Shown here: positions 9,924-43,309 of the stretch, one piece after another | How positions within the stretch are numbered: the first letter of the stretch is position 1 | Layout of the letters: every line of letters starts with the position of its first letter | From: an uncultured Acidobacteriota bacterium | GTDB taxonomy: Bacteria > Acidobacteriota > UBA6911 | Reading direction: 5' to 3' | DNA: 64,000 nt | NCBI GenBank assembly: GCA_964642735.1 | Contig: CAZXSV010000011.1 | Coordinates: 21,589-85,588 of the forward strand | Made by a program: the position numbers and the translations under genes | The notes under the pieces: model-generated | The model's input: the letters and a program-made list of their open reading frames with translations, nothing else | Told to the model about the DNA's origin: nothing | The model's database searches: none

Positions 9924-10652
9924 ATGTCGACAATCCACGAGTTCAATCAATACGGCGAAGATATGGAAAGGCTTCTCATCATGAGGACCTCGCCCATTGC
10001 CGTTAAAATGCTGGAAAAGGAAGCGGACATCCCGCAGGGAGCGATCCGGCCGAAGAAAGACCGCCGATGCCACTTCGCGCAATGTCAGGCCTTCGCGCTG
10101 TCCCGGCGCGAAGGAACGCCGGTTGCCATGCTGAAGGAAGATCACTGGTGCCCGGCCGCGGTCATAGCCTACGGGCTGGAGAAAAAGCCGGAATCCCTGG
10201 CAAAGCTGTCGCATCCTTACAATTGTTTCGAACACGGAAAATACATCGGCATCGTCACCGCGCCTTTGAAAAGCGCCAATTTCATTCCAGATATTGTGAT
10301 CGCCTATTTGAAGCCGGCGCAGCTGCGGGGACTTCTGTTGAGCCTGAAAGTCGAAGATGTGCCCGAAGTCAGCGGTCACTTCTTCCCCCCTTCCTGCGCC
10401 TGGGCTGTCGTCGAGCCGATGAAGACGGGCCGGTACTGGGTCGTGACGCCGGATCCGGGAGAATATCAGCGGGCGCTGACCGACGAGGGGGATATGATGT
10501 TTTCCGCACCGCAAAGCAAAATGCCCGCCCTGATGGCGGGCTTAAGGCAAAACAAAATTTTCTCGTATCGCGACCACCACATGGCCATGCTGCCGGATTT
10601 CGAACGGCCCGCTTTTTACGTCGAATTATTCAAAAGCTGGGGGATGGAGTAA
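9924..10652 (+). CDS. DUF169 domain protein (copy 1)
   Basis: Contains RTSPIAVKMLEKEADIP...CHFAQCQAFALSRREG...EDHWCPAA. The ATG at 9924 follows GGAGG (9911-9915). Paralogous to 13893..14675 and to the decayed copy near 35 kb. Confidence 0.8.
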   Translation: MSTIHEFNQYGEDMERLLIMRTSPIAVKMLEKEADIPQGAIRPKKDRRCHFAQCQAFALSRREGTPVAMLKEDHWCPAAVIAYGLEKKPESLAKLSHPYNCFEHGKYIGIVTAPLKSANFIPDIVIAYLKPAQLRGLLLSLKVEDVPEVSGHFFPPSCAWAVVEPMKTGRYWVVTPDPGEYQRALTDEGDMMFSAPQSKMPALMAGLRQNKIFSYRDHHMAMLPDFERPAFYVELFKSWGME

Positions 10653-10731
10653 GACAACGCCAAAGTCTTGAGGGCTTTGCGCAGCAATGGGCCGGAAAAT
10701 CAAATAGAGGGGCCCGGGCGCCCAGTTTTAT

Positions 10732-11589
10732 TCAGCCTTGCTGCAAAAGGCTGCCGCCGCCGATGAACGTCTCCGGATCCTTTCTTTCGGCGGCGTTGAG
10801 GCTAAGCCATCCGATCGCATTCAAGAAGAAGGGATCTTTGAGAGCCCTGGCATTTGCGGGGCAGGCCCGAACGCAGGCGCAACACAGGATGCATGTTTGT
10901 GCATTCGATCTCGACGTTGTGTCGATGGATATCGAGCCGGTTGGGCATCGGGAAACACACACGCCGCAAGCAGTGCACAGGGCCGGCTCGGTTTCCGGAG
11001 AAGTTTTCGGAAATTGGGACCGCTCTCTGAAGGGCCGGTTCCCGGGCGGTTTCGGGGGAAAAATGTCGCCGGGGATTTGAACGTTTCGCAGATAAAGGCC
11101 AATCGTCGACCCGAATTCCCGGGCGCGGTTGAAATCGGACGTATCCGGACGCCCTTTTGAAAGGGGCGCCGCCGCCGTGGAAAACGAGTGCTCCCCGATG
11201 AACGCCCCTGCGGCAGCCAGAGAAAATCCGGCCTCTCGAACAAGATCGGTTAATTCCAAAAGCGCGTCATGGTATCCCTTGTTGCCGTAAAGCACGACGG
11301 CGACCGCCGGACTCCCGTTCGCTTTCAGCGTTCGGAACCTCCGGATGGCCGTCTCCGGAAGCCTGCCGGAGTAAACGGGCGCTCCAATGACGAGCAGATC
11401 ATTTTTTTTCATTGCCTCGACCGTGCGCCGCTCCATATCGGGATAGGTCGCATCGATGGGCTCGACAGCATCCGCACCGATGCCATCGGCAATGCTCTCC
11501 AGAATCGATTTCGTCGTCCCGGTCGGCGAAAAATAAAGCAGCCACACCTTTTGTATTTTCAAAATCCCCTCCGTCCCGTTCCAGGGCAT
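10732..11589 (-). CDS. Flavodoxin-like domain fused to a 2x[4Fe-4S] ferredoxin domain
   Basis: LLYFSPTGTTKSI flavodoxin P-loop-like start, plus CTACGVCVSRCP and CILCCACVRACP cluster motifs. An alternative TTG start near 11562 follows GGAGGGG. Confidence 0.75.
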   Translation of the reverse strand: MPWNGTEGILKIQKVWLLYFSPTGTTKSILESIADGIGADAVEPIDATYPDMERRTVEAMKKNDLLVIGAPVYSGRLPETAIRRFRTLKANGSPAVAVVLYGNKGYHDALLELTDLVREAGFSLAAAGAFIGEHSFSTAAAPLSKGRPDTSDFNRAREFGSTIGLYLRNVQIPGDIFPPKPPGNRPFRERSQFPKTSPETEPALCTACGVCVSRCPTGSISIDTTSRSNAQTCILCCACVRACPANARALKDPFFLNAIGWLSLNAAERKDPETFIGGGSLLQQG

Positions 11590-14785: not shown

Positions 14786-14798
14786 TTGCATTATGCAA
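14786..14798. promoter_or_regulatory. Type-1 palindrome TTGCATTATGCAA (putative enhancer-binding-protein site)
   Basis: Perfect TTGCA/TGCAA inverted arms, centred about 82 bp upstream of the GG of the -24 element at 14873. Confidence 0.45.
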
Positions 14799-14872
14799 CA
14801 AGTCAGTCCTTTCCATCTACTGGAATGGCCGGGTGCGGCCTTGGAATAAGGGAAAAAACAGGAAGGAAAGTA

Positions 14873-14887
14873 TGGCACGCTCAATGC
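14873..14887 (+). promoter_or_regulatory. Sigma-54 (-24/-12) promoter candidate upstream of thioredoxin
   Basis: TGGCACGCTCAATGC has a perfect TGGCACG -24 box, the exact GG-N10-GC spacing and an ATGCA -12 box. It lies about 70 nt upstream of the ATG at 14957. Confidence 0.65.
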
Positions 14888-14956
14888 ATAGTCCTTCATT
14901 ACGGATCAGCATGAATGATCGGGCTAAAAAGCCGCGCTATTCGAGAGAGGGCTTCA

Positions 14957-15304
14957 ATGACTGAAAAAAGCAAAATTTTGTACGCCAACGACGAAACATT
15001 CGACACGACCGTCCTCGACAGCGCTTTGCCGGTGCTGGTCGATTTTTGGGCGCCGTGGTGCGGCCCGTGTCGAACGTTCGAGCCTACAATCGAGGAACTC
15101 GCAAAGGAGTATGCGGGCAAAATCAAATTCGTCAAGGTCAATGTCGATCAGGGCCTGCGGACGGCGATGTCTCTGGATGTGAGAAACATTCCTGCCGTCG
15201 TTCTGTTCGCTCAAGGCAAGCCGGTCCGAAAACTCGTGGGCGCGCAGCCTAAAGCCGATCTGAATTCCGCAATCGAGCAATGGCTGAATGCAAACGCAGC
15301 TTAA
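14957..15304 (+). CDS. trxA: Thioredoxin
   Basis: VLVDFWAPWCGPCR active site and a length of about 115 aa. I prefer the ATG at 14957 over the track start at 14915. Confidence 0.9.
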   Translation: MTEKSKILYANDETFDTTVLDSALPVLVDFWAPWCGPCRTFEPTIEELAKEYAGKIKFVKVNVDQGLRTAMSLDVRNIPAVVLFAQGKPVRKLVGAQPKADLNSAIEQWLNANAA

Positions 15305-17440: not shown

Positions 17441-18736
17441 CTAATCCAACAGGCGACGCAGCAACAGGAAATAGCCGACGATCAAAGCGCCTGTCGTCAA
17501 CGAGGAAGGCAGCAGATAACGGTAGACCGGACCGTACGTCGTGCCGAAATACCGGTTGCTGACGATCTGGCAGATATGGATGGGGCTCAGCATCTGTCCG
17601 AGGTGCCCGAAAGCGTAAGCCAGCGGGATGTAAGCCGCCATCGGACCAGCCGATTCGGCCCCGCCCGCAAGATTCAGGACGATCGGGAAAGACGTCCCCA
17701 CGAATCCGACGGCAATTCCCGTAACAAATCCGGCGATGAAAGGCAGGATGGCCGCCACCAGGGCTATCGGCACGCTGAGGTTCTGCAGTTCCCGGGCGAT
17801 CTGTTGCGGCGCCTGAACCGCTTCGAGTATATGTTGAAAGATCAGGACGGCCAAAACCAGTCCGGCGGTCGAGTAAAGAACAGGCTGCGAAAATGCTTTT
17901 AAAAGCTTTGCAATGGCGAGCCTGCGATCGAATAGCGTGAACAGGATGCTGCCCAGCAGCCCTAAAATCAACGGGCCATGTTGCAGAAGCGCGCCGGCGA
18001 GCGTTTTGGAGGGGCGATTGTCCAGACATAAGCCTGCAGCGATGTGCGCCACAAACCAAATCAGCAGAATCAACCAGATGGACGACGTCGCACGCAACAA
18101 TTTTCGTTTCACGCCGACCGGCGAAGCGGCGTTTTGAGCCTGCATGCCGGGATTCATTCGGATAAGCATCAGCAGGCCGCCAAGGAACATGGCTACAGTC
18201 CCGTAGATCATGAGAGCGGTCCAGGAAAACATATTGCGATTCGTCATTGCCATCGCAAGGATTACTCCCGGGTACAGAGGCCAGAAATACTCCCAGATGT
18301 GGCGAAACCAATAGTTGATATACGAAAGGCGCCCGTTGGAGAGTCCCGTCTTGCCGCCGGCCGCTTCAACCATCGGGGCGGAGAAGATGGCGCCGCCCGG
18401 CATGGGCAGCAAGCCAATCAGGGCCGGCATAGCCATGATTGTCACAACCGGGCGGCGAAGCGCTGCGTGAGCGAGGGAGACTATTTCCTCCAATAGTCCG
18501 CTCTCACGCATCAGTATGGACAACCCCAGAAGCAGCACGGTGATGGCGGCCAGGGCGAGGGTTTGAGGAGCGGCGCCTCCCGCCCAGGCAGCCTCGGCCA
18601 GACTTAAGGCGTCCATGCCGAAAGCCAAACCCGCCGCGGCGCTCCCGGCCAGAATAGCGAGGCCCAAAGGCGCGCGAAGGCGGGCCAAAGTGAGAATAAG
18701 CGCAAAAGCGCCGAGAGTGACCAGCAAAGCAAACAT
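17441..18736 (-). CDS. DUF401-like polytopic permease (ion-transporter superfamily)
   Basis: 431 aa with more than 10 hydrophobic segments. The N-terminus MFALLVTLGAFALILTLARLRAPLGLAILAG resembles DUF401/TIGR00529 proteins. Tentative. Confidence 0.5.
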   Translation of the reverse strand: MFALLVTLGAFALILTLARLRAPLGLAILAGSAAAGLAFGMDALSLAEAAWAGGAAPQTLALAAITVLLLGLSILMRESGLLEEIVSLAHAALRRPVVTIMAMPALIGLLPMPGGAIFSAPMVEAAGGKTGLSNGRLSYINYWFRHIWEYFWPLYPGVILAMAMTNRNMFSWTALMIYGTVAMFLGGLLMLIRMNPGMQAQNAASPVGVKRKLLRATSSIWLILLIWFVAHIAAGLCLDNRPSKTLAGALLQHGPLILGLLGSILFTLFDRRLAIAKLLKAFSQPVLYSTAGLVLAVLIFQHILEAVQAPQQIARELQNLSVPIALVAAILPFIAGFVTGIAVGFVGTSFPIVLNLAGGAESAGPMAAYIPLAYAFGHLGQMLSPIHICQIVSNRYFGTTYGPVYRYLLPSSLTTGALIVGYFLLLRRLLD

Positions 18737-18793
18737 GGCGACCCGACAAAATATCCCGATGCCTTGTTTAAATAATTCGCCGTATCATGGGGT

Positions 18794-19690
18794 TCAGATC
18801 TGGAAATTCGCATCAGGCCGAATCCCGGCGCCGGCCTCCAAAACGCCCGACAGATTGCGCCAGAGGCTTTTTATTTCCTGAGCGACCCTGCCGCTGGAAT
18901 ACTCGACTACCGGAACTCCACGAACAATGGATTCCGTAACAACGTTGTCAAAAGGTATTTTCCCCGCTATCTTGACTCCCCGGCCCAAACACTGGCTTTC
19001 TATCCGCCTTGCATTATCTTGATTCAAATCGCATTTGTTGATGCAAACCATAGCCAGGACGCCGAAATGTTTGCAGACGTCAAGCACTCTGTCCAAATCA
19101 TGCATCCCCGAAAGAGTGGGTTCGGCAACCAGCAGGGCCAGGGAGGCCCCGGACAGCGATGAAATTACCGGGCAGCCGATGCCGGGAGGGCCGTCGCATA
19201 TAATCAATTCTTTCCCTTCGCTCTCAGCGATTTTTTTGGCATGGCGCCGCACCACGGCGACAAGCTTTCCAGAGTTCTCCTCGGCGACGCCAAGCCGGGC
19301 GTGAACCAGCGGCCCGAACCTGGTTTCGGAAACAAACCAGTGTCCGCACATTCTATCTTTCATCGATATGGCTTCGGCGGGACAGATCAAGGAGCAAAAT
19401 TTGCAGCCTTCGCAGGAAACGGGATCGACGCAGAAATTTTCAATCGCGCCAAAACGGCAAATTTCCCGGCATTGGCCGCACTGGGTGCATTTTTCAGGAT
19501 CGATATAGGCGGCCTGCCCGCTCCAGAACTCGTTTTTCTGCCGCTCCTCCGGACAAAGCAGCAGATGAAGATCCGCAGCGTCCACATCGCAGTCGGCGAG
19601 CGCCTTGTTATCCGCCAAAACCGCCAGTGAACCGACGATGGTGGTTTTCCCGGTCCCCCCTTTACCGCTCAGTATGACAATTTCTTTCAT
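18794..19690 (-). CDS. MinD/ParA-type P-loop ATPase with an inserted 2x[4Fe-4S] ferredoxin domain
   Basis: ILSGKGGTGKTT deviant Walker A, plus CTQCGQCREICRFGAI and CEGCKFCSLICPAEAI. The ATG at 19690 overlaps the upstream paralog by 29 nt. Confidence 0.8.
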   Translation of the reverse strand: MKEIVILSGKGGTGKTTIVGSLAVLADNKALADCDVDAADLHLLLCPEERQKNEFWSGQAAYIDPEKCTQCGQCREICRFGAIENFCVDPVSCEGCKFCSLICPAEAISMKDRMCGHWFVSETRFGPLVHARLGVAEENSGKLVAVVRRHAKKIAESEGKELIICDGPPGIGCPVISSLSGASLALLVAEPTLSGMHDLDRVLDVCKHFGVLAMVCINKCDLNQDNARRIESQCLGRGVKIAGKIPFDNVVTESIVRGVPVVEYSSGRVAQEIKSLWRNLSGVLEAGAGIRPDANFQI

Positions 19691-20537
19691 CGATGAATCC
19701 TTTGACTCTATCGAAAAGCTCCTGGAAGCTTTTCTTCCACTTCGGCATCCCTTCAACCAAAGGTATGCCGCGCGAATAAAACCGGGCGATCTCGGCGTCC
19801 AGCGGGATGGAAAGCAGGATTGGAATGCCCTCTTTCCGACAATACTCCTGCACTCCGGAGTCTCCGACTCCGGTGCGGTTCAGCGCCACTCCGAAGGGAA
19901 TATCAAGCTTCCTTGCCATTTCCACGGCGAGAGAAAGGTCATTAAGACCAAAGGGAGTCGGTTCGGTGACCAGCAGGCAGAAATCGCTTCCTTTCACGGC
20001 TTCCACCACGGGGCAGGAAGTCCCCGGCGGAACGTCTCTGATGACGACGCCTTCGCATCCCGCGTTTTCCTTCACCTTTCGGATAACGGGCGGGGCCATG
20101 GCTTCCCCCACATTCAGTGCGCCATGAATGAAACTTATGCCGTTTGAATCCCCCCATTCGACGATTCCTGTTTCCCTGTTTTCCTCCTCGATCGCCTTTT
20201 CCGGGCAAAGGAAGCTGCACGCGCCGCAGCCGTGACAAAGCTGGGGAAAAGTCAACACACGCTTCCCCATAACGATAATCGCATTATAAGCGCATGCTTC
20301 GGCGCACTTCCGGCATAGGGTGCACTTTTTCTCGTCGACTTTCGGAACCGGAATCCACACGGCGCTTCTTCCGGCTATTTCAGGATTAAGAAAAATGTGA
20401 TCGTTCGGCTCTTCGACGTCGCAGTCGACGAGCTGGACTTTATGGGAATCTTTCAAAGAGAGGGCGAGGCTGGTCGCCACCAGCGTCTTGCCGGTTCCTC
20501 CTTTGCCGCTGGCTACCGATATAATCATTTTGTTCAA
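19662..20537 (-). CDS. MinD/ParA-type P-loop ATPase with an inserted 2x[4Fe-4S] ferredoxin domain (paralog)
   Basis: VASGKGGTGKTL, plus CTLCRKCAEACAYNAI and CHGCGACSFLCPEKAI. Confidence 0.8.
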   Translation of the reverse strand: MNKMIISVASGKGGTGKTLVATSLALSLKDSHKVQLVDCDVEEPNDHIFLNPEIAGRSAVWIPVPKVDEKKCTLCRKCAEACAYNAIIVMGKRVLTFPQLCHGCGACSFLCPEKAIEEENRETGIVEWGDSNGISFIHGALNVGEAMAPPVIRKVKENAGCEGVVIRDVPPGTSCPVVEAVKGSDFCLLVTEPTPFGLNDLSLAVEMARKLDIPFGVALNRTGVGDSGVQEYCRKEGIPILLSIPLDAEIARFYSRGIPLVEGMPKWKKSFQELFDRVKGFIDERNCHTER

Positions 20538-20546
20538 CTTCCTTGT

Positions 20547-21107
20547 TCAATTATTTTTCCCCAACTCTTCGATCCGCCGTTGGATTTCCGCCAGCTGATC
20601 CGCCATCATCCGCGACTGATTCTTCAGCTCCTGGAGCTCCTGTTCACGGCCTGATGACTGGGTTGAGGGCTCTGCCGCGCCTTTGCCCCTGCCGCAGCCT
20701 TTTCCCGCCCCTCGATTCATTCCGCCGCCTGCGCCCGGCGATCCCCCCATGCCAAAATGATCCGGCGCGTTAGCCTGATCGCTCGCTTTGTATTTGCCCA
20801 ACCGATAGTTTTGCACGACGTCTTTCACCTTGCCTGAGACTCCGGTGATGATCCCGACGCCGGCGGCGGAAAGCGCCTGGTAAGCGTTGGGTCCGCAGTG
20901 GCCTGTCAATACCGCCTGCACGCCTTTATCGGCGATTGTCTGTGCGGCTGCAATCCCTGCGCCGCCGGCCGCCGAAGCCGCGGAGTTGTCCATTGCTTCG
21001 AACGCCATTGTCTCGGGATCGACAATAATAAAGTAAGGGCAACGGCCGAACCGTGGCTCGGCTTCGGCTTCCAGGCCGGGGCCCGCTGCTGAAATTGCAA
21101 TTTTCAT
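20547..21107 (-). CDS. NifX/NifB-C-terminal-like (dinitrogenase FeMo-cofactor-binding fold) domain fused to a Gly-rich linker and a DUF5320-like coiled coil
   Basis: N-terminus MKIAISAAG...RFGRCPYFIIVD...AVLTGHCGPNAYQAL, then GGSPGAGGGMNRGAGKGCGRGKG, then ELQELKNQSRMMADQLAEIQRRIEEL. Confidence 0.75.
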   Translation of the reverse strand: MKIAISAAGPGLEAEAEPRFGRCPYFIIVDPETMAFEAMDNSAASAAGGAGIAAAQTIADKGVQAVLTGHCGPNAYQALSAAGVGIITGVSGKVKDVVQNYRLGKYKASDQANAPDHFGMGGSPGAGGGMNRGAGKGCGRGKGAAEPSTQSSGREQELQELKNQSRMMADQLAEIQRRIEELGKNN

Positions 21108-21124
21108 ATCTCCTCCTCGTTTTT

Positions 21125-21859
21125 CTATTTATTATTCCTAACCATGGTGAGCCGACGAACTCCCCCGATCTGCCGGTAATTGGCGCCCTGGCTCACACAG
21201 CGGAGGGCCAGGTCCGCGTCAAAAACTTTCGTGCCCGATATGGCATCGATGCCGTAATCAAAAAGAACGGGCGACAGCGGCGCGCTGTCGCCGAGGATTA
21301 CAACATAGGCTTCAGGTCTGCACAAATCCAGCAGTTGTTCGATAGTATGGTTGGTAAAGGCCGTACCGGTAATTCCAACGACATCGGCCATTGGGATGCA
21401 ATCAACCGACGCGGATTCATCCAGGTCTCCTTCGGCCGGATTCTTCTCAATAACCCAGAGTTCCTTCACCGCTTCACGCAGCTCGGGGATGAAGGGAAAA
21501 TGCCCAACGATGGCCACATTCCGGCCCCTTCCCTTTTCGGCGATCAATTCGCGGGCATTGAGGTTTCGGCAGCGTTCTTCATCAATTTCGAGCAATGAAT
21601 TGATCGTCGCCATGCCAACGGCCGCTTCCAGAATGCTGTCGGAATAAGCCATTTCAACCAGCTCCGATGCGCTTTTAGCCAAAAGCTCGCCCGGCGTCCG
21701 GATAGACGGACGGCCCTGTTTTAAAACGTCGCGCGGCAGGGTGGAAGCCAAACCGCAATTGCGGGTCGCCACGCCCGTATGAAAGAGACCGACGCGTATG
21801 TCTCTTACATCCGCTTCAGTGTTCAAAGTCGAAAGCAAGTCTTCGAGAATTTTTTTCAC
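21125..21859 (-). CDS. DUF4213/DUF364 protein (putative metal-chelation fold), copy 1
   Basis: Contains IRVGLFHTGVATRNCGLASTL and a Rossmann-like VAIVGHFPF. Collinear with 43399..44145. Confidence 0.75.
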   Translation of the reverse strand: MKKILEDLLSTLNTEADVRDIRVGLFHTGVATRNCGLASTLPRDVLKQGRPSIRTPGELLAKSASELVEMAYSDSILEAAVGMATINSLLEIDEERCRNLNARELIAEKGRGRNVAIVGHFPFIPELREAVKELWVIEKNPAEGDLDESASVDCIPMADVVGITGTAFTNHTIEQLLDLCRPEAYVVILGDSAPLSPVLFDYGIDAISGTKVFDADLALRCVSQGANYRQIGGVRRLTMVRNNK

Positions 21860-22140: not shown

Positions 22141-23517
22141 CTATCGCACGCGTTTCCTGCCGGCGCGGCCATCCCGTTCCGGCGGCTTGATTCCGAGTCT
22201 TTTCATCCGCCGAAATAAAGTTGTCTTGTGGATGCCCAGCTCCTTCGCCGCCGCAAGGCGATTGAATCCGGTTCGATCGAGAGTCGAACGAATGGCCTGT
22301 GCATCGAAAACGTCATGGACTGATCGAATGCCGGAATCGAACCGGCCGGCGGCGGCCAAGCCGGTCAACTCTTCAGGCAGGTGCGGGATATCGATAAATC
22401 CGTCCCTGCAAAGAACGAAAGCGCGCTCGATGACATTTTCCAGTTCCCGAATATTGCCTGGCCAATGATACGCCATCATAAGCGACAGAGCTTCTGGCGC
22501 GACCCCCTGGACATTCTTTCGCTGCAGGCGGTTGAAACGCGCAATGAACTGGTTTGCCAGAAGCGGAATGTCCTCTTTCCGCCGGCGCAACGGCGGAAGT
22601 TCGATGCGGACGACATGGACCCGGTAGTAAAGGTCCTCTCTGAAAAGACCCTTGCGGACCATTTCACGCAGGTCTTTGTTGGTGGCGGCAATGACGCGGG
22701 CATCGGCGGCGACGGATCGATCGGCGCCAAGCGGTTCATAGGCGCGCTCCTCGAGCACGCGCAGCAGCTTGACCTGGAGAGCCGGAACGACTTCAGCGAT
22801 TTCGTCGAGGAAAATGGTCCCCCCGCCGGCCAAGGCAAAACGTCCCGGCTTGTCCCGGTTTGCTCCCGTAAACGCTCCGGCCTTATAGCCGAACAGTTCA
22901 GACTCCAGAAGCGTTTCCGGCAAAGCGCCGCAATTGACAGCTATGAATGGCCCATGGCGCCGGGGGCTTAGAGAATGAACGGTTCTAGCCGCCACCTCTT
23001 TTCCGGTTCCCGTCTCCCCCAGGATCAAAACCGTGCTCAGGCTGGACGCAATTGCGGGAAGGACTTCAAACACCCGCTGCATCAAAGGACTCCTGCTGAC
23101 AAGATCGCCGGCGTGGAATTTCCCCTCGAGTTCACGACGCAGCGCCTCCAGTTCGGAAAGGTCTCTGAAAGTCTCGGCGCCGCCGACCACACGTCCGCTG
23201 CCATCCCTTAACACCGCCGTGGAAATGCTTACCGGTATGCGGGTCCCTTCGGAGTTGATTATGAACGCTGATTTTCCAATGATGGGTTTCCCCGTTTCCA
23301 GGGTCTTGGCAAGAGCGCACGCGTCCCCGCACATGCTGCAGCGGAACACTTCCGAACATCGCTGTCCAACGGCTTCTTTTCTGGAAACGCCTGTGATTTC
23401 CTCGGCCGCACGGTTAAAAGAGGCAATGCGCCATTGCCCGTCTACGGTGAAAACGCCATCGGAAATGCTCTCCAAAATGGCTTCAGTCTGGAATCGTTTT
23501 CTCGGATTCTTTTTCAC
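22141..23517 (-). CDS. Sigma-54-dependent transcriptional activator, PAS - AAA+ - Fis-HTH (EBP1)
   Basis: GETGTGKEVAARTVH Walker A, GAFTGA loop, C-terminal AAKELGIHKTTLFRRMKRLGI, and an N-terminal PAS domain (ISDGVFTVDGQWRIASFNRAAEEITG). Confidence 0.9.
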   Translation of the reverse strand: MKKNPRKRFQTEAILESISDGVFTVDGQWRIASFNRAAEEITGVSRKEAVGQRCSEVFRCSMCGDACALAKTLETGKPIIGKSAFIINSEGTRIPVSISTAVLRDGSGRVVGGAETFRDLSELEALRRELEGKFHAGDLVSRSPLMQRVFEVLPAIASSLSTVLILGETGTGKEVAARTVHSLSPRRHGPFIAVNCGALPETLLESELFGYKAGAFTGANRDKPGRFALAGGGTIFLDEIAEVVPALQVKLLRVLEERAYEPLGADRSVAADARVIAATNKDLREMVRKGLFREDLYYRVHVVRIELPPLRRRKEDIPLLANQFIARFNRLQRKNVQGVAPEALSLMMAYHWPGNIRELENVIERAFVLCRDGFIDIPHLPEELTGLAAAGRFDSGIRSVHDVFDAQAIRSTLDRTGFNRLAAAKELGIHKTTLFRRMKRLGIKPPERDGRAGRKRVR

Positions 23518-23636
23518 AGCGCGCCCCTGCCCCGCTTTCTTTCATGCAGACGCCGTGCCACAGACGGGATGTTTTTGCACAAAGCGCTTCCTGCCGGCCT
23601 ATCGGCGCCGCCGCCGGAAAACATGGATACGATACA

Positions 23637-23680
23637 TTGCACAATGCAAAAATAACATTTTCACTTAATGCATTTTGCAA
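23637..23680. promoter_or_regulatory. Pair of type-1 palindromes (TTGCACAATGCAA and ATGCATTTTGCAA), 31 bp centre to centre
   Basis: Sites at 23637-23649 and 23668-23680, in the divergent EBP1/mrp intergenic region. They lie 140-171 bp upstream of the -24 element at 23813. Confidence 0.5.
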
Positions 23681-23812: not shown

Positions 23813-23827
23813 TGGCACGATCATTGC
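23813..23827 (+). promoter_or_regulatory. Sigma-54 promoter candidate for the mrp-nifX-like-fmdB-like-radical SAM operon
   Basis: TGGCACGATCATTGC is a consensus -24 TGGCACG and -12 TTGC with exact spacing. It lies 66 nt upstream of the ATG at 23893. Confidence 0.7.
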
Positions 23828-23892
23828 CTGCATTAAACCTGTCAAGAGCGCAAAGGCCCGAAAACACGGAGCAACCCCTGTGAGAGTGAGCT

Positions 23893-24972
23893 ATGGCAAC
23901 CGAATCTGAAGTGAGAAAGGCGTTGGAGCAGGTTCAGGACCCTGAACTCGGCAGGAGCATTGTCGATCTCGGGATGGTGCGCAACCTGCAAGTTGAGGAA
24001 GGCATCGTGGCTTTCACGCTGGCGCTGACCAGCCTGTCGTGTCCGTTTAAGGATCGCATGGTTGAAAGTGCAAAAAAAGCGGTGCAAGCGTTGGATGGGG
24101 TCCGGGACGTCGACGTCTTCCTGGAACAAATGACGCCTACGGAAAAAGGCTCTTTGAACAAAAAGGATGCGCCCAAGAGCATTGTGGAAAAGCTGAACGA
24201 CGTCAAACACGTCATCGCCGTTATGAGCGGGAAGGGCGGAGTCGGGAAATCCCTGGTCACGGGCCTTCTGGCGGCCAGCTTTCGCCGCATGGGTCATAAA
24301 GTGGGAGTGCTCGACGCCGACATTACCGGCCCCAGCATTCCCAAGATGTTTTTTAAAAATGGCGCGCGCCCCGGAACCAGCCCTATGGCACTGTTGCCGC
24401 CGAAGACGCAGACGGGCATATCCGTAATGTCGATAAACCTTCTGCTTGAGAGCGAAGACCAGGCGGTGATCTGGCGCGGCCCACTAGTCAGCAACGCCAT
24501 AAAGCAGTTCTGGACCGAGGTTTTATGGGGGGAATTGGACTACCTGCTGGTCGACCTGCCTCCCGGCACCTCAGACGCCTCTCTGACGGTGCTTCAATCT
24601 CTGCCGATGAGCGGAGTCGTTTTGGTTACGTCGCCGCAGAATCTCGCAGGAATGGTTGTACGCAAAGCGGCGAACATGGTTCGGGACATCGGAATCCCGA
24701 TCCTTGGCTTGCTGGAAAACATGAGCTATTTCGTCTGCCCCGACACCGGCGCCCATCACGAGATTTTCGGAAAGAGCGAGCCTGAGCTCATGGCCTCTCA
24801 ACTCGGGATCCCGCTGCTCGGATGTCTGCCGATCGATCCAGCGATCGCGGCGCTATGCGACCGGGGAGAGATTGAAAATTATCCGGGAGATTTGTTCACA
24901 CCGATCGCCCGTCAAATTGCAAAACTCGCGCCGGCGGCAAGCGCTCCTAAAATGCCGCCGCAGGAATCCTAA
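23893..24972 (+). CDS. apbC: Mrp/NBP35/ApbC-family Fe-S cluster carrier ATPase with an N-terminal DUF59-like domain
   Basis: VMSGKGGVGKS deviant Walker A, LDYLLVDLPPGTSD, NMSYFVCPDTG (CxxC-type carrier motif region), and N-terminal VQDPELGRSIVDLGMV. Confidence 0.85.
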   Translation: MATESEVRKALEQVQDPELGRSIVDLGMVRNLQVEEGIVAFTLALTSLSCPFKDRMVESAKKAVQALDGVRDVDVFLEQMTPTEKGSLNKKDAPKSIVEKLNDVKHVIAVMSGKGGVGKSLVTGLLAASFRRMGHKVGVLDADITGPSIPKMFFKNGARPGTSPMALLPPKTQTGISVMSINLLLESEDQAVIWRGPLVSNAIKQFWTEVLWGELDYLLVDLPPGTSDASLTVLQSLPMSGVVLVTSPQNLAGMVVRKAANMVRDIGIPILGLLENMSYFVCPDTGAHHEIFGKSEPELMASQLGIPLLGCLPIDPAIAALCDRGEIENYPGDLFTPIARQIAKLAPAASAPKMPPQES

Positions 24973-25028
24973 CAAGTTTCGTGCGAGCCAAATCACAAAG
25001 TGGCGCGCCATTTGCACCAGGGTGTTCT

Positions 25029-25415
25029 ATGAGAGTTGCAATTCCATTGTGGCAAGGACGCGTTTCGCCGGTTTTCGACGAGGCGCGCAGGATTCTTCTT
25101 GTAGACATTTTCGAAAAACAGGAAAAAAGCCGGCAGGAGGAGTCTCTGACGGCACGAAATCCATTCGAACGGGCGCAGCTGCTTCCGGAGCTCGGAGTCG
25201 ACCTTCTGATCTGCGGGATGATATCTCAAACTCAGCAGACCGCGCTTGCTTCCGCCGGGATCCGGATAATCCCGCACATCTGCGGTCCGATGGAGGATGT
25301 GATTGCCGCATTTCTTGACGGCCGGATTGAAAACGGAGCGCTGCTAATGCCAGGATGCAGCGGCCGAAAGCGCTCGCGCCGCAGAATCGCCGGATCATGC
25401 CGGAAAGAGGTCTAA
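25029..25415 (+). CDS. NifX/NifB-C-terminal-like cofactor-binding-fold protein
   Basis: MRVAIPLWQGRVSPVFDEARRILLVD...LLICGMISQ...ASAGIRIIP. I prefer the ATG at 25029. Confidence 0.75.
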   Translation: MRVAIPLWQGRVSPVFDEARRILLVDIFEKQEKSRQEESLTARNPFERAQLLPELGVDLLICGMISQTQQTALASAGIRIIPHICGPMEDVIAAFLDGRIENGALLMPGCSGRKRSRRRIAGSCRKEV

Positions 25416-26795: not shown

Positions 26796-27048
26796 GCGTC
26801 CTGAGGCAAAGCCGGAGTCTTAACGGGTTTCCCGCAAATGCCATAAGGAAGCGCCTTCCGCCGTGTGTTGCAGGTCTTCTTGATTGAAAATAAGACTCGG
26901 GCATAAAACATTCTCCAGTATTTTCAGGACTGCCGCGCTCCCCGGCGGAGCCGAAAAATTTATCCTGCCCGTTTCCGGATATGGCCTTAAATTCTCAAAG
27001 CCTTCCGTTTATAATGGCGAAAAAACATCAGACAAGAGGTTTGGAATT

Positions 27049-27837
27049 ATGTATAACTTTTCAGAAGTGGAAGTATCGCGGGCAATTCTGGAAGCCTATG
27101 GCGCCAAATTCGGCAAAGCCCTGCAGAGCGATGTTGTGCTGGTCGGAGCAGGGCCTTCCGGCCTGGTGGCGGCCTGGCGTCTTGCTCAGGCGAATTACAG
27201 CGTTGTCATACTCGAAAAGCGTCTCAGCCCCGGAGGCGGCGTCTGGGGCGGCAGCCTCGGAATGAATGAGGTCGTCGTCCAGCAGGAGGCCTTAAGCATC
27301 CTCGAGGAGGCAGGGGTGCGATTCCAGCCGAGCGGGCGTTTGTTTAACGCCGATGCGATGGAACTGGCGTCGGCCCTGTGCGTGAAGGCTTTGCACGCCG
27401 GCGCAATCATGCTCAATCTCATGACCGCCGAGGATCTTTGCGTTCGCGGCGAACGGGTGACGGGAGTCGTCGCCAACAGATCGCTGCTGGGCGAGAATCT
27501 GCCCATCGACCCCATTGCTTTCTCGACGAAGGCCGTGATTGACGCGACAGGGCATGAAGCCGTCCTTGCCAACTGCCTGCAGCGGCGCGGACTGCTCCCC
27601 AACAATCAAGCCCGGCTTCCCGGCGAAGGCCCGATGGACGCTTCTTCCGGAGAAAAATTCGTCGAGGATTCGGTGACCGAAATATTTCCGGGCTTATGGG
27701 TGGCCGGGATGAGCATCTGCGCGTCCATAGGCGGGCCGAGAATGGGGCCGATCTTCGGCGGCATGCTTCTGTCGGGCAACAGGGCGGCCCGGTTGGTGGC
27801 TTCCTCTGTCGGGAAGAATCCAGGCTCCGGCGAATAA
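27049..27837 (+). CDS. thi4: Thi4-type thiazole synthase (Cys-less, sulfide-dependent type)
   Basis: VVLVGAGPSGLVAAWRL FAD motif and VIDATGHEA (the archaeal DATGHDA-type motif, with no catalytic Cys). I prefer the ATG at 27049. Confidence 0.85.
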   Translation: MYNFSEVEVSRAILEAYGAKFGKALQSDVVLVGAGPSGLVAAWRLAQANYSVVILEKRLSPGGGVWGGSLGMNEVVVQQEALSILEEAGVRFQPSGRLFNADAMELASALCVKALHAGAIMLNLMTAEDLCVRGERVTGVVANRSLLGENLPIDPIAFSTKAVIDATGHEAVLANCLQRRGLLPNNQARLPGEGPMDASSGEKFVEDSVTEIFPGLWVAGMSICASIGGPRMGPIFGGMLLSGNRAARLVASSVGKNPGSGE

Positions 27838-28064: not shown

Positions 28065-29753
28065 GTGAAAGCAATCATCATTGGAGGAGTGGCCGCGGGC
28101 CCCAAAGCCGCAGCTAGAATCATTCGCATGAAGCCCGATGCGGATGTAACGATCGTGGAAAAGGGTTTGTTCCTTTCGTACGCGGGATGCGGCCTTCCCT
28201 ATTATGTTTCCGGCGAAATTAAGGAGCAGAATGAACTGATGGAAACCGCTGCGGGCGTCGTCCGGGACGCTGCGTTTTTTCTGAGCGTCAAAAATCTGAA
28301 AGTCCAAAACAGAACAGAAGCCATCGAAATAGACCGCGGCGGCAAACGCGTCCATATTAAAGCTTTGTCAACAGGCAAAGAATCCTGGCTTCATTATGAC
28401 AAGCTCCTGCTGGCCACCGGCGCTTCCCCGGTGGTTCCTTCTATTCCCGGCGTGGAAAAAAAGAACGTTTTCACTCTTCACGGCATCCACGACGCCGAAG
28501 GAATCAAAAAAGCGCTGGCCGAACGAAAAGCCAAGGACGTCGTCATCATAGGCGGCGGCCTTATCGGAGTGGAAGCGACCGAAGCATTGGCCACTCATGG
28601 CTGCCGTGTAACGATTGTGGAAATGCTGCCGCAGGTTCTCAGCATGCTGGATTGGGAGATGGCCCGCCTGATCGAAAATTACTTGGAGTCCAACGGCGTC
28701 CGGGTGATGACCCAAACTAAAGCCCTTGCACTGGAAAGCCGGACTGGATCGGAGGACATCGTCCATTTTGTGCGAACCGACAAAGGAGATCTTCCCGCCG
28801 ACATGGTCATCCTGGCTATTGGCGTGCGACCGAACATTTCATTGGCGCAAAAAGCCGGACTGGCCATCGGCGAAAAAACCGGCGCGATCCGCGTCGACAG
28901 CCATATGCGCACCTCGGACCCGGACATTTACGCCGCGGGCGATTGCGTGGAATGCCTGGACATCCTGACCGGGGGCCCCTGCTATGTCCCGCTCGGCTCC
29001 ACGGCCAATAAGCAAGGCCGCGTGGCGGCAGTGAATATGTGCGGCGGCAATGAAGTATTTCCGGGCATTTTGGGCAGTTCGATCTGCAAAATATTCGATT
29101 ACTGCGCAGGCCGCACGGGCCTGACGGAGCGCGCAGCGAGCTCTTTGGGATATGACGTCCTCACCGCAATGGTCCCCGGAGCGGACAGGGCGCACTACAT
29201 GCCCAAATCCCAAACCCTGTTGATGAAGGTCGTTGCCGACAGGAAAAGCGGCAGGCTGCTGGGCGTTCAGGCGACTGGGCCCGGCGAAGGCGCCAAAAGA
29301 ATCGATGTCGCAGCTACAGCGATCACGGCGGGCATGACGCTGGATCAAATCGCCCATCTCGATCTTTCCTATGCTCCGCCTTACGCGTCCGCCATGGACA
29401 ACCTGATAACGGCGGCGAACGTGGCTCGAAACAAGCGGGATGGACTTATGAACGGCATCACGGCAGAATTCGTATGGCGCAAGATACAAAACGGGGAGGA
29501 TTTCGTCTTTCTCGATGTCCGGTCTCCCCAGGAGCACGCGCAGGTTCATCTGCCCAAGTCGATCCTGATCCCGTTGGGCGCATTGCGCAAGCGCCTCGCG
29601 GAACTGCCGAAAGACAAAGAAATCATCGCCTACTGCGCAATTTCGCTTCGCGGATATGAAGCGTCTCTGATTTTAAGAGCGGCCGGTTTCACGGATGTAA
29701 AAGTCCTGGACGGCGGCATAGCCATGTGGCCCTACGAGAAGGAAGAGCCGTAG
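28065..29753 (+). CDS. CoA-disulfide/persulfide reductase-like FAD oxidoreductase with a C-terminal rhodanese domain
   Basis: IIGGVAAGPKAA, the redox Cys in SYAGCGLPYY, and a second dinucleotide fold VVIIGGGLIGVE. The C-terminal rhodanese domain has IIAYCAISLRG. GTG start after AAAGGAG. Confidence 0.85.
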   Translation: MKAIIIGGVAAGPKAAARIIRMKPDADVTIVEKGLFLSYAGCGLPYYVSGEIKEQNELMETAAGVVRDAAFFLSVKNLKVQNRTEAIEIDRGGKRVHIKALSTGKESWLHYDKLLLATGASPVVPSIPGVEKKNVFTLHGIHDAEGIKKALAERKAKDVVIIGGGLIGVEATEALATHGCRVTIVEMLPQVLSMLDWEMARLIENYLESNGVRVMTQTKALALESRTGSEDIVHFVRTDKGDLPADMVILAIGVRPNISLAQKAGLAIGEKTGAIRVDSHMRTSDPDIYAAGDCVECLDILTGGPCYVPLGSTANKQGRVAAVNMCGGNEVFPGILGSSICKIFDYCAGRTGLTERAASSLGYDVLTAMVPGADRAHYMPKSQTLLMKVVADRKSGRLLGVQATGPGEGAKRIDVAATAITAGMTLDQIAHLDLSYAPPYASAMDNLITAANVARNKRDGLMNGITAEFVWRKIQNGEDFVFLDVRSPQEHAQVHLPKSILIPLGALRKRLAELPKDKEIIAYCAISLRGYEASLILRAAGFTDVKVLDGGIAMWPYEKEEP

Positions 29754-34021: not shown

Positions 34022-34034
34022 TTGCAAAATGCAA
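34022..34034. promoter_or_regulatory. Type-1 palindrome TTGCAAAATGCAA
   Basis: Perfect arms, centred about 167 bp upstream of the GG of the 33848-33862 promoter candidate, in non-coding DNA. Confidence 0.4.
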
Positions 34035-40493: not shown

Positions 40494-41651
40494 CTAAGCG
40501 TTCGCTTCTATGGATGAAATGCCGCGAAGCCGCCGGACGGTATCGGCCAGGGCGGCGACGACAGCATCGACGTCCTCCTCTTTCGTGCTCCTGCCGAACG
40601 AGACCCTGACGGAGCTTTGCGCTTCCTTGGGAGAAAGCCCCATCGCGAGAAGGACATGCGAGGGCTCCGGGTCGCCTGTGGAGCATGCGGAGCCCGTCGA
40701 AACATAGATTCCGCGAAGGTCCAATCCAAGAACGATAGATTCCCCGTCGACGGACTCGAAACTCAGGCTGGAAGTGTTCGGCGCGCGCGGCGAGGACGAT
40801 CCGTTGATTTTCACTCGCGGCGCCGCGGAAACGATCCGGGACTCAAACCGGTCGCGAAGGCGCCGCAGCCGCCTGGATTCGGCAGCCGAAGACTCGACCG
40901 CCAAGGCGAGCGCGTGAGCGAATCCGACAATGCCGGCGACATTTTCCGTTCCGGCGCGCAAACCGCGCTCATGCGGCCCGCCGGTGAGGATGGGATCGAC
41001 CGGAGTCCCTTCGCGGACGTACAGCGCAGCCGTCCCCTTGGGGCCGTATATCTTGTGGCCGGAAACGGAAATAAGGTCGGCGCCGAGCTCGCACAACCGG
41101 CCGGGCATCTTGCCCGCCGTCTGCACCGCGTCCGTGTGAAATACAACGCCGCGCCTTTTAGCCAGCGCGGCGATCTCCTCAACCGGCTGGAGCACGCCGG
41201 TCTCGTTGTTGGCGTGCATGACGCTGATCAGGACGGTCTCCGGGCGCAAACTTGATTCGACGTCCTCAACGCGGACGGCGCCGCCGGCCCCGACCGGCAG
41301 ATAGGAGATCCGTCTGCCTTCAGATTCCAGGGCTTTGCACGTGTGGAGCACGGCGTGGTGTTCGATCGCCGTTGTTACGATGTGATCGCCGCGCGACCGC
41401 AACGAGCGCGCCACTCCGCGAATCGCAAGGTTGTCCGATTCCGTGCCGCAGGAAGTAAAAAATACTTCCGCAGGCTTGCACCCGAAGCAATCGGCGACGC
41501 TCTCCCGGGCCTTTTCCACGGCGAGCCTGGCCTGATTGCCGAAGCTGTAAGGGCTGGAGGGATTGCCCCAGCGATCGTTCAGGAAAGGAAGCATGGCTTC
41601 CAGGACCCGGCCGTCCAGCGGGGTTGTCGCGTTGTAATCGAGATAGATCAC
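40494..41651 (-). CDS. nifS: Cysteine desulfurase NifS
   Basis: IYLDYNATTP, SGHKIYGPKG (PLP Lys) and STGSACS (active Cys loop). The GTG at 41651 overlaps the nifU stop (GTGA). The track start at 41867 lies inside nifU. Confidence 0.9.
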   Translation of the reverse strand: MIYLDYNATTPLDGRVLEAMLPFLNDRWGNPSSPYSFGNQARLAVEKARESVADCFGCKPAEVFFTSCGTESDNLAIRGVARSLRSRGDHIVTTAIEHHAVLHTCKALESEGRRISYLPVGAGGAVRVEDVESSLRPETVLISVMHANNETGVLQPVEEIAALAKRRGVVFHTDAVQTAGKMPGRLCELGADLISVSGHKIYGPKGTAALYVREGTPVDPILTGGPHERGLRAGTENVAGIVGFAHALALAVESSAAESRRLRRLRDRFESRIVSAAPRVKINGSSSPRAPNTSSLSFESVDGESIVLGLDLRGIYVSTGSACSTGDPEPSHVLLAMGLSPKEAQSSVRVSFGRSTKEEDVDAVVAALADTVRRLRGISSIEANA

Positions 41652-42121
41652 CGTTTCTTCTCCTCGCGAGCGAGCTTTCTCGCCTCCCAATCCCTTATGG
41701 CCGCCTGAAGGGCCAAAACGCCCAGCAGCGAACAGTGCTTTTTCCTTTCCGGAATCCCTCCGAGGGCCTCCACAACGTCGTCGTCCGTTATTCTCCCAGC
41801 TTCTTCTATAGACTTCCCTTTCGCCAGGGCGGTCAACATGCTGCTGGTGGCGATCGCACCCGGACATCCGAAAGATTTAAACGCAATCTTTTCGATCCGC
41901 TCGGACTTGACCGATATCCAGAGCTTCATCTGGTCGCCGCAGGAGGGGTCGCCGACCAATCCGTATCCATCCGTCTCGCTCTCCGGCAGTTCTCCTGCAT
42001 TGCGCGGATTGATGAAATGATCGATGACATCTTCATTGTAAAAAAGGACAGGTCCCGAATACCGGGGCTGTTCTTTATTCTCATCCGTATTCTCATCCGT
42101 CGGTGGTTTTTCCATAGCCAT
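41648..42121 (-). CDS. nifU: NifU/IscU-type Fe-S scaffold (N-terminal-domain type)
   Basis: GDPSCGDQMKLWI, FGCPGAIATSS and KKHCSLL, the three scaffold Cys motifs. Confidence 0.85.
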   Translation of the reverse strand: MAMEKPPTDENTDENKEQPRYSGPVLFYNEDVIDHFINPRNAGELPESETDGYGLVGDPSCGDQMKLWISVKSERIEKIAFKSFGCPGAIATSSMLTALAKGKSIEEAGRITDDDVVEALGGIPERKKHCSLLGVLALQAAIRDWEARKLAREEKKR

Positions 42122-42271: not shown

Positions 42272-42284
42272 TTGCAGAATGCAA
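42272..42284. promoter_or_regulatory. Type-1 palindrome TTGCAGAATGCAA
   Basis: Perfect arms, centred about 97 bp upstream of the GG of the 42168-42182 candidate, in the thioesterase/nifU intergenic gap. Confidence 0.4.
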
Positions 42285-42291: not shown

Positions 42292-42765
42292 TTACAGCGC
42301 TTCGTCGCTCCCTCCGGCCTGGATCAAATCCCGGTCGATAAATTTGGCCGAGGCCCGGACCAGAGTCCGCCCTTCCTGCTCCAGCTCCGCTTCCATCACA
42401 TACAGCGGCGGCTCATATTCCCTGATCCAGGCCTTGACGGTAGCCGGGCGATCGATTTCCACCGGAAGAAGGAATCGGACGATGAGCCTTGCCGTCACCG
42501 CAACGATTCTGCGGGCGAAAAGACAATTGGCCATCGCAGAATCCAGCAGCATAGAACTGACGCCTCCGTGCAGAAAACCCGGATACCCTTGATACACCCG
42601 GCTGCATGAAAACTCCGCCTGGACGCCCTTGTCGTCCCGAAGGGAAAACTCGAGTGCAAGCCCCGTAGCGTTCCCCGCGCTGCACGTGATGCAGTTCGGA
42701 TGCGCCAGTCTCCTGGTAGTTTCAAGATCTTGCGTGCAAGGGTCAACCATATAAATATCGTTCAA
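42292..42765 (-). CDS. PaaI-family hotdog-fold thioesterase
   Basis: YQGYPGFLHGGVSSMLLDSAMANC core motif, 157 aa. Confidence 0.75.
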   Translation of the reverse strand: MNDIYMVDPCTQDLETTRRLAHPNCITCSAGNATGLALEFSLRDDKGVQAEFSCSRVYQGYPGFLHGGVSSMLLDSAMANCLFARRIVAVTARLIVRFLLPVEIDRPATVKAWIREYEPPLYVMEAELEQEGRTLVRASAKFIDRDLIQAGGSDEAL

Positions 42766-42775: not shown

Positions 42776-43150
42776 TTAATGACCGCACTGCCCGCCGTGT
42801 TCCTGACAGGAATCGTTCATTGAAAGCTCTTGAAGCCTGTCTTCTTTCAATAATGCGATATTTTCGTCGATGGTTGCGGCGCCCGCTCTGTAAACCTTTA
42901 CGCCCATCGCGTTGAATTTCGAAACGGCCCCCGGGCCCATGCCGCCTACAATCATCGCATCGACGCTGTTCCCTCCAAGGGTCATAAACGGATTGCAGAC
43001 GCCATGCTCCCGATGAGAGTTGGCATTATCCACCGCGGAAATCTGCAGATTGTCGACGTCGACAATGACAAATGCGGGCGCCGAGCCGAAGTGTCCATAA
43101 ACAGCGCTTTTAAGTCCTTGATTGAATTGAACCGGGAAACCAACCTTCAT
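42776..43150 (-). CDS. NifX/NifB-C-terminal-like cofactor-binding-fold protein with a Cys/His tail
   Basis: VYGHFGSAPAFVIVD...AMIVGGMGPGAVSKFNAMGVKVY, with tail DSCQEHGGQCGH. Confidence 0.8.
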   Translation of the reverse strand: MKVGFPVQFNQGLKSAVYGHFGSAPAFVIVDVDNLQISAVDNANSHREHGVCNPFMTLGGNSVDAMIVGGMGPGAVSKFNAMGVKVYRAGAATIDENIALLKEDRLQELSMNDSCQEHGGQCGH

Positions 43151-43231
43151 CTCTTTCTCCTTCGATTAAATTTAATTGGGAACGTTTCTCAAACCGAGCC
43201 GATCTCCTTCCAAAACTCGTCCTGCTTTCAA

Positions 43232-43246: not shown

Positions 43247-43309
43247 TATTATAGGAAATTTTCTCTACGATTTAAACCTCTTCGCTCTGTCTTCGCACGG
43301 TTGCACGAC

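Follow-up and report, generated by a model that had tools for sequence, protein, structure and literature searches.

Introduction

The locus considered here raises the question of what is perceived by the cysteines clustered in the PAS sensor domains of EBP1 and EBP2, two sigma-54-dependent activators encoded in a 64,000-nucleotide (nt) stretch of DNA from an uncultured Acidobacteriota bacterium (lineage UBA6911; contig CAZXSV010000011.1, positions 21,589 to 85,588), hereafter called the window. An original prediction, made from the letters of this stretch alone, proposed an Fe-S or metal-sensing input, named NreB as a precedent and suggested that occupancy of the site by a cluster or metal feeds back on the assembly genes nearby. 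It is highly probable, in our assessment, that EBP1 and EBP2 are two paralogous sigma-54 enhancer-binding proteins of the OrpR family, this joint explanation including a redox mechanism carried over by homology. Ligation of an Fe-S cluster by their PAS cysteines appears most likely, since the same triad, the same spacing and the same acidic residue occur in the experimentally characterized OrpR. As gating of a sigma-54 activator by a [4Fe-4S] cluster in its PAS domain had already been established for OrpR in 2021, the Fe-S inference is correct but largely known.

OrpR (DVU2106) of Desulfovibrio (Nitratidesulfovibrio) vulgaris Hildenborough (DvH) is the sigma-54 activator of the orp operons and carries a [4Fe-4S] cluster in its PAS domain (Fievet et al., 2021; PMC8359166). 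Its PAS cysteines C52, C61 and C65 are fully conserved, lie at Cys-Cys distances of 5-8 Å in the published model and have D/E54 nearby (PMC8359166). Purified anaerobically from DvH or from E. coli, the protein is brown, shows bands at ~320 and 410 nm, is silent in electron paramagnetic resonance (EPR) as isolated and contains 0.3-0.5 cluster per chain; a weak [4Fe-4S]1+ signal emerges after dithionite and a [3Fe-4S]1+ signal after dichlorophenolindophenol (DCPIP) or ferricyanide, while in air the cluster is lost (PMC8359166). Ultraviolet-visible spectroscopy, EPR and a triple Cys-to-Ser mutant demonstrated that the redox-sensitive [4Fe-4S]2+ cluster is needed for signal perception, and orp expression becomes constitutive upon either this triple substitution or deletion of the PAS domain (PMC8359166). 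Oxidation leaves DNA binding unchanged, the targets revealed by chromatin immunoprecipitation with sequencing (ChIP-seq) are the two orp operons only, and the off state follows a rise of the medium potential by ~140 mV, from about -425 mV to about -280 mV (PMC8359166). In this respect OrpR resembles activators of the NorR/DmpR type, which likewise become constitutively active once the sensor domain is deleted and whose signal acts by lifting or imposing repression of the AAA+ module, DNA binding being unchanged, although their sensors are a GAF domain with mononuclear iron (NorR) and a V4R/XylR-N domain (DmpR) and not an Fe-S PAS.

Results

Two Activators with a Common Cysteine Triad

EBP1 is encoded on the minus strand (22141-23517) by an open reading frame (ORF) of 458 amino acids (aa) with a GTG start and combines a PAS domain, an AAA+ module with the GAFTGA loop and a Fis-type helix-turn-helix (HTH); its paralog EBP2, bearing the GAFTDA variant of this loop, is encoded on the plus strand (44237-45637) by an ORF of 466 aa as annotated. 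Pfam gives one and the same order for both, PAS, Sigma54_activat, AAA_lid_14 and HTH_8, the Sigma54_activat match of EBP1 being 3.3e-66. The sensor domain of EBP1 spans aa 12-122 (23152-23484, minus strand) according to Pfam PAS_9/PAS_4 and to an AlphaFold2 model of the PAS domain only. Within it the motif C54-x5-C60-x2-C63-x3-C67 occupies 23317-23358 of the minus strand (peptide GQRCSEVFRCSMCGDACALAKT), with codons TGT for C54 (23358-23356) and TGC for C60 (23340-23338), C63 (23331-23329) and C67 (23319-23317), and E56 (23350-23352) provides an acidic residue two positions after the first cysteine (C+2). EBP2, if numbered from 44237, has C61, C70 and C74 at 44417-44458 of the plus strand (peptide GQQCFEVFRASICENACALRRT), again with a glutamate, E63, at C+2. 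Pairwise alignment (54% identity over 441 residues) sets C61, C70 and C74 opposite C54, C63 and C67 and places alanine opposite C60, so both the cysteine cluster of EBP1 and the retention of three of its members in EBP2 were found exactly where the original prediction had located them. A protein identical to EBP1 is encoded by a Logan contig from SRR8925742; an exact sequence look-up of EBP2 returned no record.

Compared with OrpR, both activators have the same PAS-AAA+-HTH architecture and the same C-x8-C-x3-C triad ~50-65 residues from the N-terminus with an acidic C+2 residue, that of EBP1 being offset by two residues. EBP1, and in part EBP2, is likewise encoded amid MinD-like ferredoxin ATPases, NifX-like proteins of the orange protein type and a Mrp-type carrier, with sigma-54 promoters and palindromic enhancers before the flanking operons. 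Domain order, triad with acidic C+2, orp-type neighbors (a full set for EBP1 and a partial one for EBP2) and, as sequence matches, sigma-54 promoters with a palindromic enhancer were all found; EBP2 in addition shares the GAFTDA variant tabulated for DVU2106. The systems differ in that DvH has a single regulator and this genome two paralogs 21 kb apart, in the extra C60, canonical GAFTGA and apparently own sigma-54 promoter of EBP1, and in that the tree places EBP1 nearest to a protein of an Acidobacteriota metagenome-assembled genome (MAG) and not of Desulfovibrio. Furthermore, what is a fusion of Mrp with the NifX-like domain in DvH is encoded here by two genes, and a thioredoxin gene and a NifS-like module are probable extra targets in this genome. 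NCBIfam is without an OrpR-specific model, all matches being below their cut-offs.

Conservation of the Triad and Variability of C60

Residues 1-135 of EBP1, used as query in a word-indexed search, yielded 7,439 proteins at E <= 0.001 among 8,000 candidates scored, and C-x8-C-x3-C is the recurring unit in all 120 matches listed. The nearest single-PAS orthologs among them (74-83% identity in the searched region) carry CSEVFRSSMCGAAC or similar, with serine at the position of C60. A scan taking one genome per species resulted in 80 loci from 80 species genomes, encoding 83 related PAS domains. Positions 54, 63 and 67 (EBP1 numbering) are cysteine in 83/83 of them, so the ortholog alignment that had been suggested together with the prediction revealed an invariant triad; position 56 is Glu or Asp in 82/83, while position 60 is occupied by Ala (40), Ser (35), Thr (5) and Cys (3). 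The 82-row PAS alignment has 11 invariant columns (G21, N35, A37, A38, C54, C63, C67, G112, E115, F117 and D119), and chance is far from explaining the pattern, as cysteine fills 82/82 rows in the triad columns but makes up only 0.42% of residues everywhere else. In a whole-library phmmer search with the PAS domain, the output of which was dominated by generic multi-PAS proteins, the triad was present in 72 of the top 150.

The four-cysteine formula, by contrast, did not withstand comparison with the relatives. C60 has a cysteine counterpart in 2/84 motifs among 50%-cluster representatives and in none of eight EBP1-type orthologs from sister genomes (seven of the same genus and one of the same class), all of which have serine there, and on the maximum-likelihood tree Cys at this position requires four independent gains, all within the EBP1 clade. 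A four-Cys site as a conserved unit is thereby ruled out. Since position 60 is variable, Ser in all eight orthologs and Cys by four separate gains, the conserved feature is, on these alignments, the three-Cys site C-x8-C-x3-C together with the acidic residue at C+2, and C60 of EBP1 is, by its distribution among relatives, a recent Ser-to-Cys change at the species level.

Half of the stray cysteines outside the triad fall at position 55 (17/82 rows) or 60 (4 rows), directly beside it. In every sequence of the 83-domain set with Cys at 55 or 60, D or E is kept at 56, an argument against simple replacement of the acidic residue by the extra cysteines; C60 or C55 as its substitute is therefore disfavored. 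Within the family the candidate fourth ligand would be the acidic residue at C+2, E56 in EBP1.

Predicted Structure of the Sensor Domain

A full-length AlphaFold2 model built from 16 close sequences was too weak (predicted local distance difference test, pLDDT, 60), and a PAS-only model from 82 sequences was used instead; for EBP1 it has a mean pLDDT of 93.7 and a predicted template modeling score (pTM) of 0.85. In this model C54 is predicted to open a helix (residues 54-58), C60 and C63 to lie in the following loop and C67 to stand just before helix 68-75 (F-alpha), so the triad would be confined to one helix-loop segment. In the phmmer alignment to FixL, D65 of EBP1 stands opposite a histidine, which we take to be the heme-ligating one, and this points to the usual PAS cofactor site as the location of the triad. 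Foldseek against the Protein Data Bank (PDB) returned heme and flavin PAS domains (DosP, LOV, NifL and FixL) and no Fe-S PAS structure, the database copy predating the 2026 structure of NreB.

Gene Neighborhood

Pfam assignments of the genes around EBP1 and EBP2 bore out the expectation that both activators are embedded among genes of Fe-S and metal trafficking. The operon downstream of EBP1 (17441-21859, minus strand) encodes a DUF4213/DUF364 protein, a Nitro_FeMo-Co+DUF5320 protein, two MinD/CbiA ATPases with 4Fe-4S ferredoxin inserts and a DUF401 protein. Divergently from EBP1, the plus strand encodes an Fe-S carrier ATPase of the Mrp/NUBPL type (23893-24972; Pfam ParA 2.3e-90, FeS_assembly_P), a second Nitro_FeMo-Co protein, NifX-like (24981-25415; Pfam), a zinc-ribbon protein and a radical SAM enzyme. 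The Mrp and NifX-like proteins together resemble a split MrpORP/Orp9. In DvH the operons orp5-orp4-orp3 and orp7-orp8-orp9 flank orpR divergently and, as we assume, encode the same protein families as the neighbors of EBP1; alongside this, the NCBIfam model MrpORP gave only weak matches, by NifX-like proteins to its C-terminal part (well below cut-off) and by one MinD-ferredoxin ATPase (19662-20537) to its N-terminal P-loop stretch (also below cut-off).

EBP2 is placed behind a second DUF4213/DUF364 copy (43399-44145, plus strand) and faces three genes of the minus strand, for a NifX-like Nitro_FeMo-Co protein (42776-43150), a thioesterase (42292-42765) and a NifS-like class-V aminotransferase (40494-41867). 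Among the 80 related loci, a NifX-like gene is linked to the activator in 61, MinD-ferredoxin ATPases, mostly paired, in 29 and Mrp in 13.

The genome encodes rpoN (sigma-54). It also contains dsrA (G000:C79:9069-10241; 564 bits, above cut-off), a gene of dissimilatory sulfur metabolism, as in DvH; the matched stretch has one in-frame TAG, which may stem from a boundary effect or an assembly error or else indicate a broken gene, and a dsrB-like match follows at 10398-11270. On the 3′ side of the Mrp operon we observed genes for a Thi4-family protein (26884-27837) and for a fusion of pyridine nucleotide-disulfide oxidoreductase with rhodanese (28065-29753), which is built like CoA-disulfide or persulfide reductases; sulfur-trafficking genes thus adjoin the orp module.

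Putative Sigma-54 Promoters and Enhancers

The five sigma-54 type elements of the two modules and the thioredoxin locus have the exact GG-N10-GC spacing, and promoters as well as palindromes were called as sequence matches. In the intergenic region between EBP1 and Mrp, TGGCACGGCGTCTGCA (23545-23560, minus strand) lies directly upstream of EBP1 and TGGCACGATCATTGCC (23813-23828, plus strand) 65 nt before Mrp, and between them two TTGCA-N3-TGCAA palindromes (23637-23649 and 23668-23680; inverted repeat I1) are spaced by 31 nt and form a candidate enhancer, or upstream activating sequence. The region 43231-43325 of the second module contains two divergent elements, GGGCCATCAAATTGCT (43246-43231, minus strand) directed toward the NifX-like gene and AGGCACGCCGATTGCT (43310-43325, plus strand) toward the second DUF364 copy and EBP2, and a palindrome pair with the same 31-nt distance (44199-44211 and 44230-44242) is found just upstream of EBP2. 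With one mismatch at most, TTGCA-N3-TGCAA occurs 10 times in the window against 2.7 expected, a number reached in 0/100 shuffles. Similar pairs, 33 nt apart, precede the NifX-like gene in three related loci (L029, L031 and L063), and in 32/39 related loci with a NifX-like gene following the activator, the gap separating the two contains a -24/-12 element. This layout would fit the OrpR scheme, in which a DNA-bound activator is flanked by sigma-54 targets.

The annotated ATG of EBP2 at 44237 falls inside the second palindrome of its pair. Translation probably begins instead at the ATG at 44267, giving a protein of 456 aa, because this codon is preceded by the ribosome-binding site GGAAGGA and is aligned with the N-terminus of EBP1. 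With such a start, the enhancer pair would overlap the promoter region of EBP2 itself, and EBP2 may be autoregulated in this way.

Outside the two modules, a near-consensus element TGGCACGCTCAATGCA (14873-14888, plus strand) is located 70 nt before a thioredoxin gene (14957-15304, plus strand; TIGR01068, 116 bits, above cut-off) and is itself preceded by the single palindrome TTGCATTATGCAA (14786-14798), making this locus (14786-15304) a probable member of the OrpR-type regulon. Single perfect palindromes were also detected at 34022-34034, ~160 nt upstream of a weak -24/-12 element (33862-33847, minus strand), and at 42272-42284, between the thioesterase and NifS-like genes. The stretch 46275-46389 has one more good sigma-54 promoter, TGGCATAATTATTGCG (minus strand), which precedes a gene for a small secreted protein (45801-46205) and is accompanied by a different palindrome, TGCAC-N6-GTGCA (46373-46389), which is presumably the site of another activator and not of EBP1 or EBP2.

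Paralog Clades and Distribution of the Family

In the tree, EBP1 belongs to a clade of 24 rows (99% support), being sister to the Acidobacteriota MAG, and EBP2 to a separate clade of 13 rows (99% support). At least one OrpR-type PAS domain is encoded in 14/18 genomes of the window's genus, seven of them having the EBP2 type only and seven both types; in 5/7 of the latter the two genes are 10-26 kb apart on the same contig. One gene of each type, adjacent to each other, is found in locus L005. Separate clades and recurrent co-occurrence in the genus imply, as far as the tree can tell, that the duplication is old and the pairing conserved. The loop contacting sigma-54 (EBP1 aa 213-218) is GAFTGA in 22/24 members of the EBP1 clade, and in the other, larger clade (n = 55), to which EBP2 belongs, it is GAFTDA in 38, GAFTGA in 10, GAFTHA in 4 and GAFTNA in 3.

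The 2021 account confined the regulator to Deltaproteobacteria (PMC8359166). OrpR-type activators linked to NifX-like genes were observed in MAGs (loci L002-L081) labeled Planctomycetota, Spirochaetota, Lentisphaerota, Verrucomicrobiota, Acidobacteriota, Gemmatimonadota, Nitrospirota, Bacillota, Omnitrophota and others, the labels being taken at face value as deposited; by this survey of genomes the family is far wider than Deltaproteobacteria.

Two further groups of proteins with related motifs came into view. Among the matches listed there are many sigma-54 activators of ~560-800 aa in which two or three PAS domains follow one another in tandem at intervals of ~115 residues, every one bearing C-x8-C-x3-C, often as CSDIFHSSICGKNC (for example, P0042 of Desulfobulbus propionicus); they look like arrays of putative Fe-S PAS sensors. 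The other group, a sister family, is represented ~11.5 kb before the window by a PAS-GGDEF protein of 298 aa (G000:C11:9748-10119; L084 991-1887, minus strand) with the motif GKRC-x12-C-x2-C-x3-C. Its family comprises 664 matches at E <= 0.001, and nearly all of the 120 listed show, when inspected by eye, C-x15-C-x3-C with D/E at C+2; in 44 of these 120 an extra cysteine stands three residues before the second one, that is, at the position of C60 in EBP1. This protein may couple an Fe-S PAS module to the synthesis of cyclic di-GMP. A literature search found no paper on a PAS-GGDEF family with the Cys motif, and since a 2023 survey of PAS families mentions NreB only for Fe-S binding, the breadth of OrpR-type Fe-S PAS domains seems under-described in the literature searched.

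Discussion

Proposed Mechanism

By analogy with DvH OrpR, each PAS domain of EBP1 and EBP2 would hold one [4Fe-4S]2+ cluster, ligated by the invariant triad (C54/C63/C67 in EBP1 and C61/C70/C74 in EBP2) and probably with the fourth iron occupied by the acidic C+2 residue (E56 and E63, respectively). The site would be formed by the short helix and the loop ahead of F-alpha, where PAS domains usually have their cofactor pocket. Both activators are expected to stay on the paired TTGCA-N3-TGCAA enhancers regardless of the redox state. At very low potential the intact cluster would stop the PAS domain from inhibiting the AAA+ module, allowing remodeling of sigma-54 RNA polymerase at the flanking promoters and expression of the orp-type genes for handling of Fe-S clusters and metalloclusters (Mrp, NifX-like proteins, MinD-ferredoxin ATPases and DUF364), probably along with the thioredoxin gene and the NifS-like module. 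As the potential rises, the cluster would be oxidized to [3Fe-4S]1+ and then lost, and the PAS domain would block activation. The cluster type, the redox response and negative control by PAS come from the DvH paper, and we infer their application to EBP1 and EBP2 as well as the pairing of activators with promoters; the motif and its conservation, the domain architecture, the synteny, the promoter and palindrome matches and the confident PAS fold were obtained directly.

Several points weigh against this attribution. Kinship with OrpR was judged by published residue numbers, motif, architecture and synteny, with the DVU2106 sequence itself standing outside the comparison and not being among the 80 loci of the species scan. 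The enhancers differ, paired TTGCA-N3-TGCAA being found here and GGGCGYRTTTTGCGCCC in DvH. The assignment of the fourth ligand is tentative, in DvH as well, and E115 is among the invariant residues of the 82-row alignment. Finally, the conditions under which the DvH system is off (O2 sparging, sparging with pure N2 and sulfate-free syntrophy with a methanogen) are all low in sulfide, which leads to the first of the alternative explanations.

Alternative Explanations

A three-Cys cluster may leave its fourth iron open to an exchangeable ligand such as HS- and thereby sense sulfide instead of, or besides, redox potential. We regard this as unlikely and nevertheless keep it as a reading, because the off conditions also remove sulfide and because NreB senses sulfide. 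In Bacillus licheniformis, NreB has a three-Cys [2Fe-2S] cluster with a labile -SH ligand and responds to sulfide (2026; PMC13478379). The OrpR authors themselves ascribed the shift in potential to stripping of H2S (PMC8359166). Conservation of only three cysteines throughout the family, the presence of dsrA in the genome and the sulfur-trafficking genes close by (the rhodanese fusion at 28065-29753, NifS-like and thioredoxin genes) are in line with such a role. On the other side, the cluster of OrpR is [4Fe-4S] and not [2Fe-2S], the acidic C+2 residue (82/83) could occupy the fourth site, and mild chemical oxidants convert the OrpR cluster in vitro with sulfide unchanged. The extra cysteines beside the triad (55, 60 and the equivalent in the PAS-GGDEF family) may tune or close an open fourth site. 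If this site is indeed open, EBP1 with C60 and EBP2 without it would form a sensor pair with different thresholds or ligand dependence and a shared enhancer motif.

The parallel with NreB, drawn in the original prediction, holds in function and not in kinship. NreB of Staphylococcus and Bacillus and the two activators are alike in having a cytoplasmic PAS domain with cysteines in a helical segment; in NreB these hold an Fe-S cluster that is labile to oxidants and, depending on the species, of the [4Fe-4S] or [2Fe-2S] type, with only three Cys as ligands in B. licheniformis. However, the NreB motif is C-x2-C-x11-C(-x2-C) (PMC13478379) as opposed to C-x8-C-x3-C, and its output is a histidine kinase working with NreC, not a sigma-54 AAA+ module with HTH. 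Membership of EBP1 and EBP2 in the NreB family is ruled out by these differences in spacing and output, and NreB was absent from the phmmer PDB matches, no kinship being detectable at the level of sequence.

Feedback of occupancy, whereby the PAS domain would report the supply of Fe-S clusters or metalloclusters and adjust their assembly genes in an IscR-like manner, appears very improbable. The composition of the putative regulon, devoted to Fe-S and metallocluster handling, the lability of the OrpR cluster (partial occupancy as purified) and the NifS-like gene in the EBP2 module speak for it. But in DvH the holo form is the activating one, so scarcity of clusters would lower the expression of the putative supply genes, the opposite of what homeostasis requires. 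The cluster-less triple Cys-to-Ser OrpR is constitutively ON like the PAS deletion, contrary to what a simple holo/apo switch predicts, and orp expression tracks the potential of the medium. Thus, of the input originally proposed, binding of Fe-S gains support from homology to OrpR, and the feedback by cluster or metal occupancy does not, given that the OrpR off state follows potential. Least credible is the absence of any Fe-S cluster, in which case the cysteines would serve as a thiol-disulfide switch or as a structural site for zinc: pairs of the CxxC and C-x3-C kind are able to bind zinc or form disulfides, and the DvH Cys-to-Ser phenotype by itself suits a thiol switch as well as a cluster, but OrpR from both DvH and E. 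coli displays the 320 and 410 nm bands and the [4Fe-4S]1+/[3Fe-4S]1+ EPR signals, and the CxxC pair of EBP1 (C60-x2-C63) is missing from EBP2 and nearly all relatives.

Implications

Taking EBP1 and EBP2 as OrpR-type redox sensors, we consider as modestly new the existence of two anciently diverged OrpR paralogs 21 kb apart, the extension of the family beyond Deltaproteobacteria, the recurrent extra Cys beside the triad, and the realization that published OrpR data do not separate sulfide from redox potential. Two deeply diverged clades of paralogs co-occur in this genus and elsewhere, here with the same enhancer motif. The natural Cys variants beside the triad are ready-made test cases for the fourth ligand and for the signal, be it potential or sulfide. 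The practical value lies in annotation: the name OrpR-like can be given to both regulators, and the "orphan" metallocluster genes beside them may be read as an orp regulon that would be switched on only under strongly reducing conditions.

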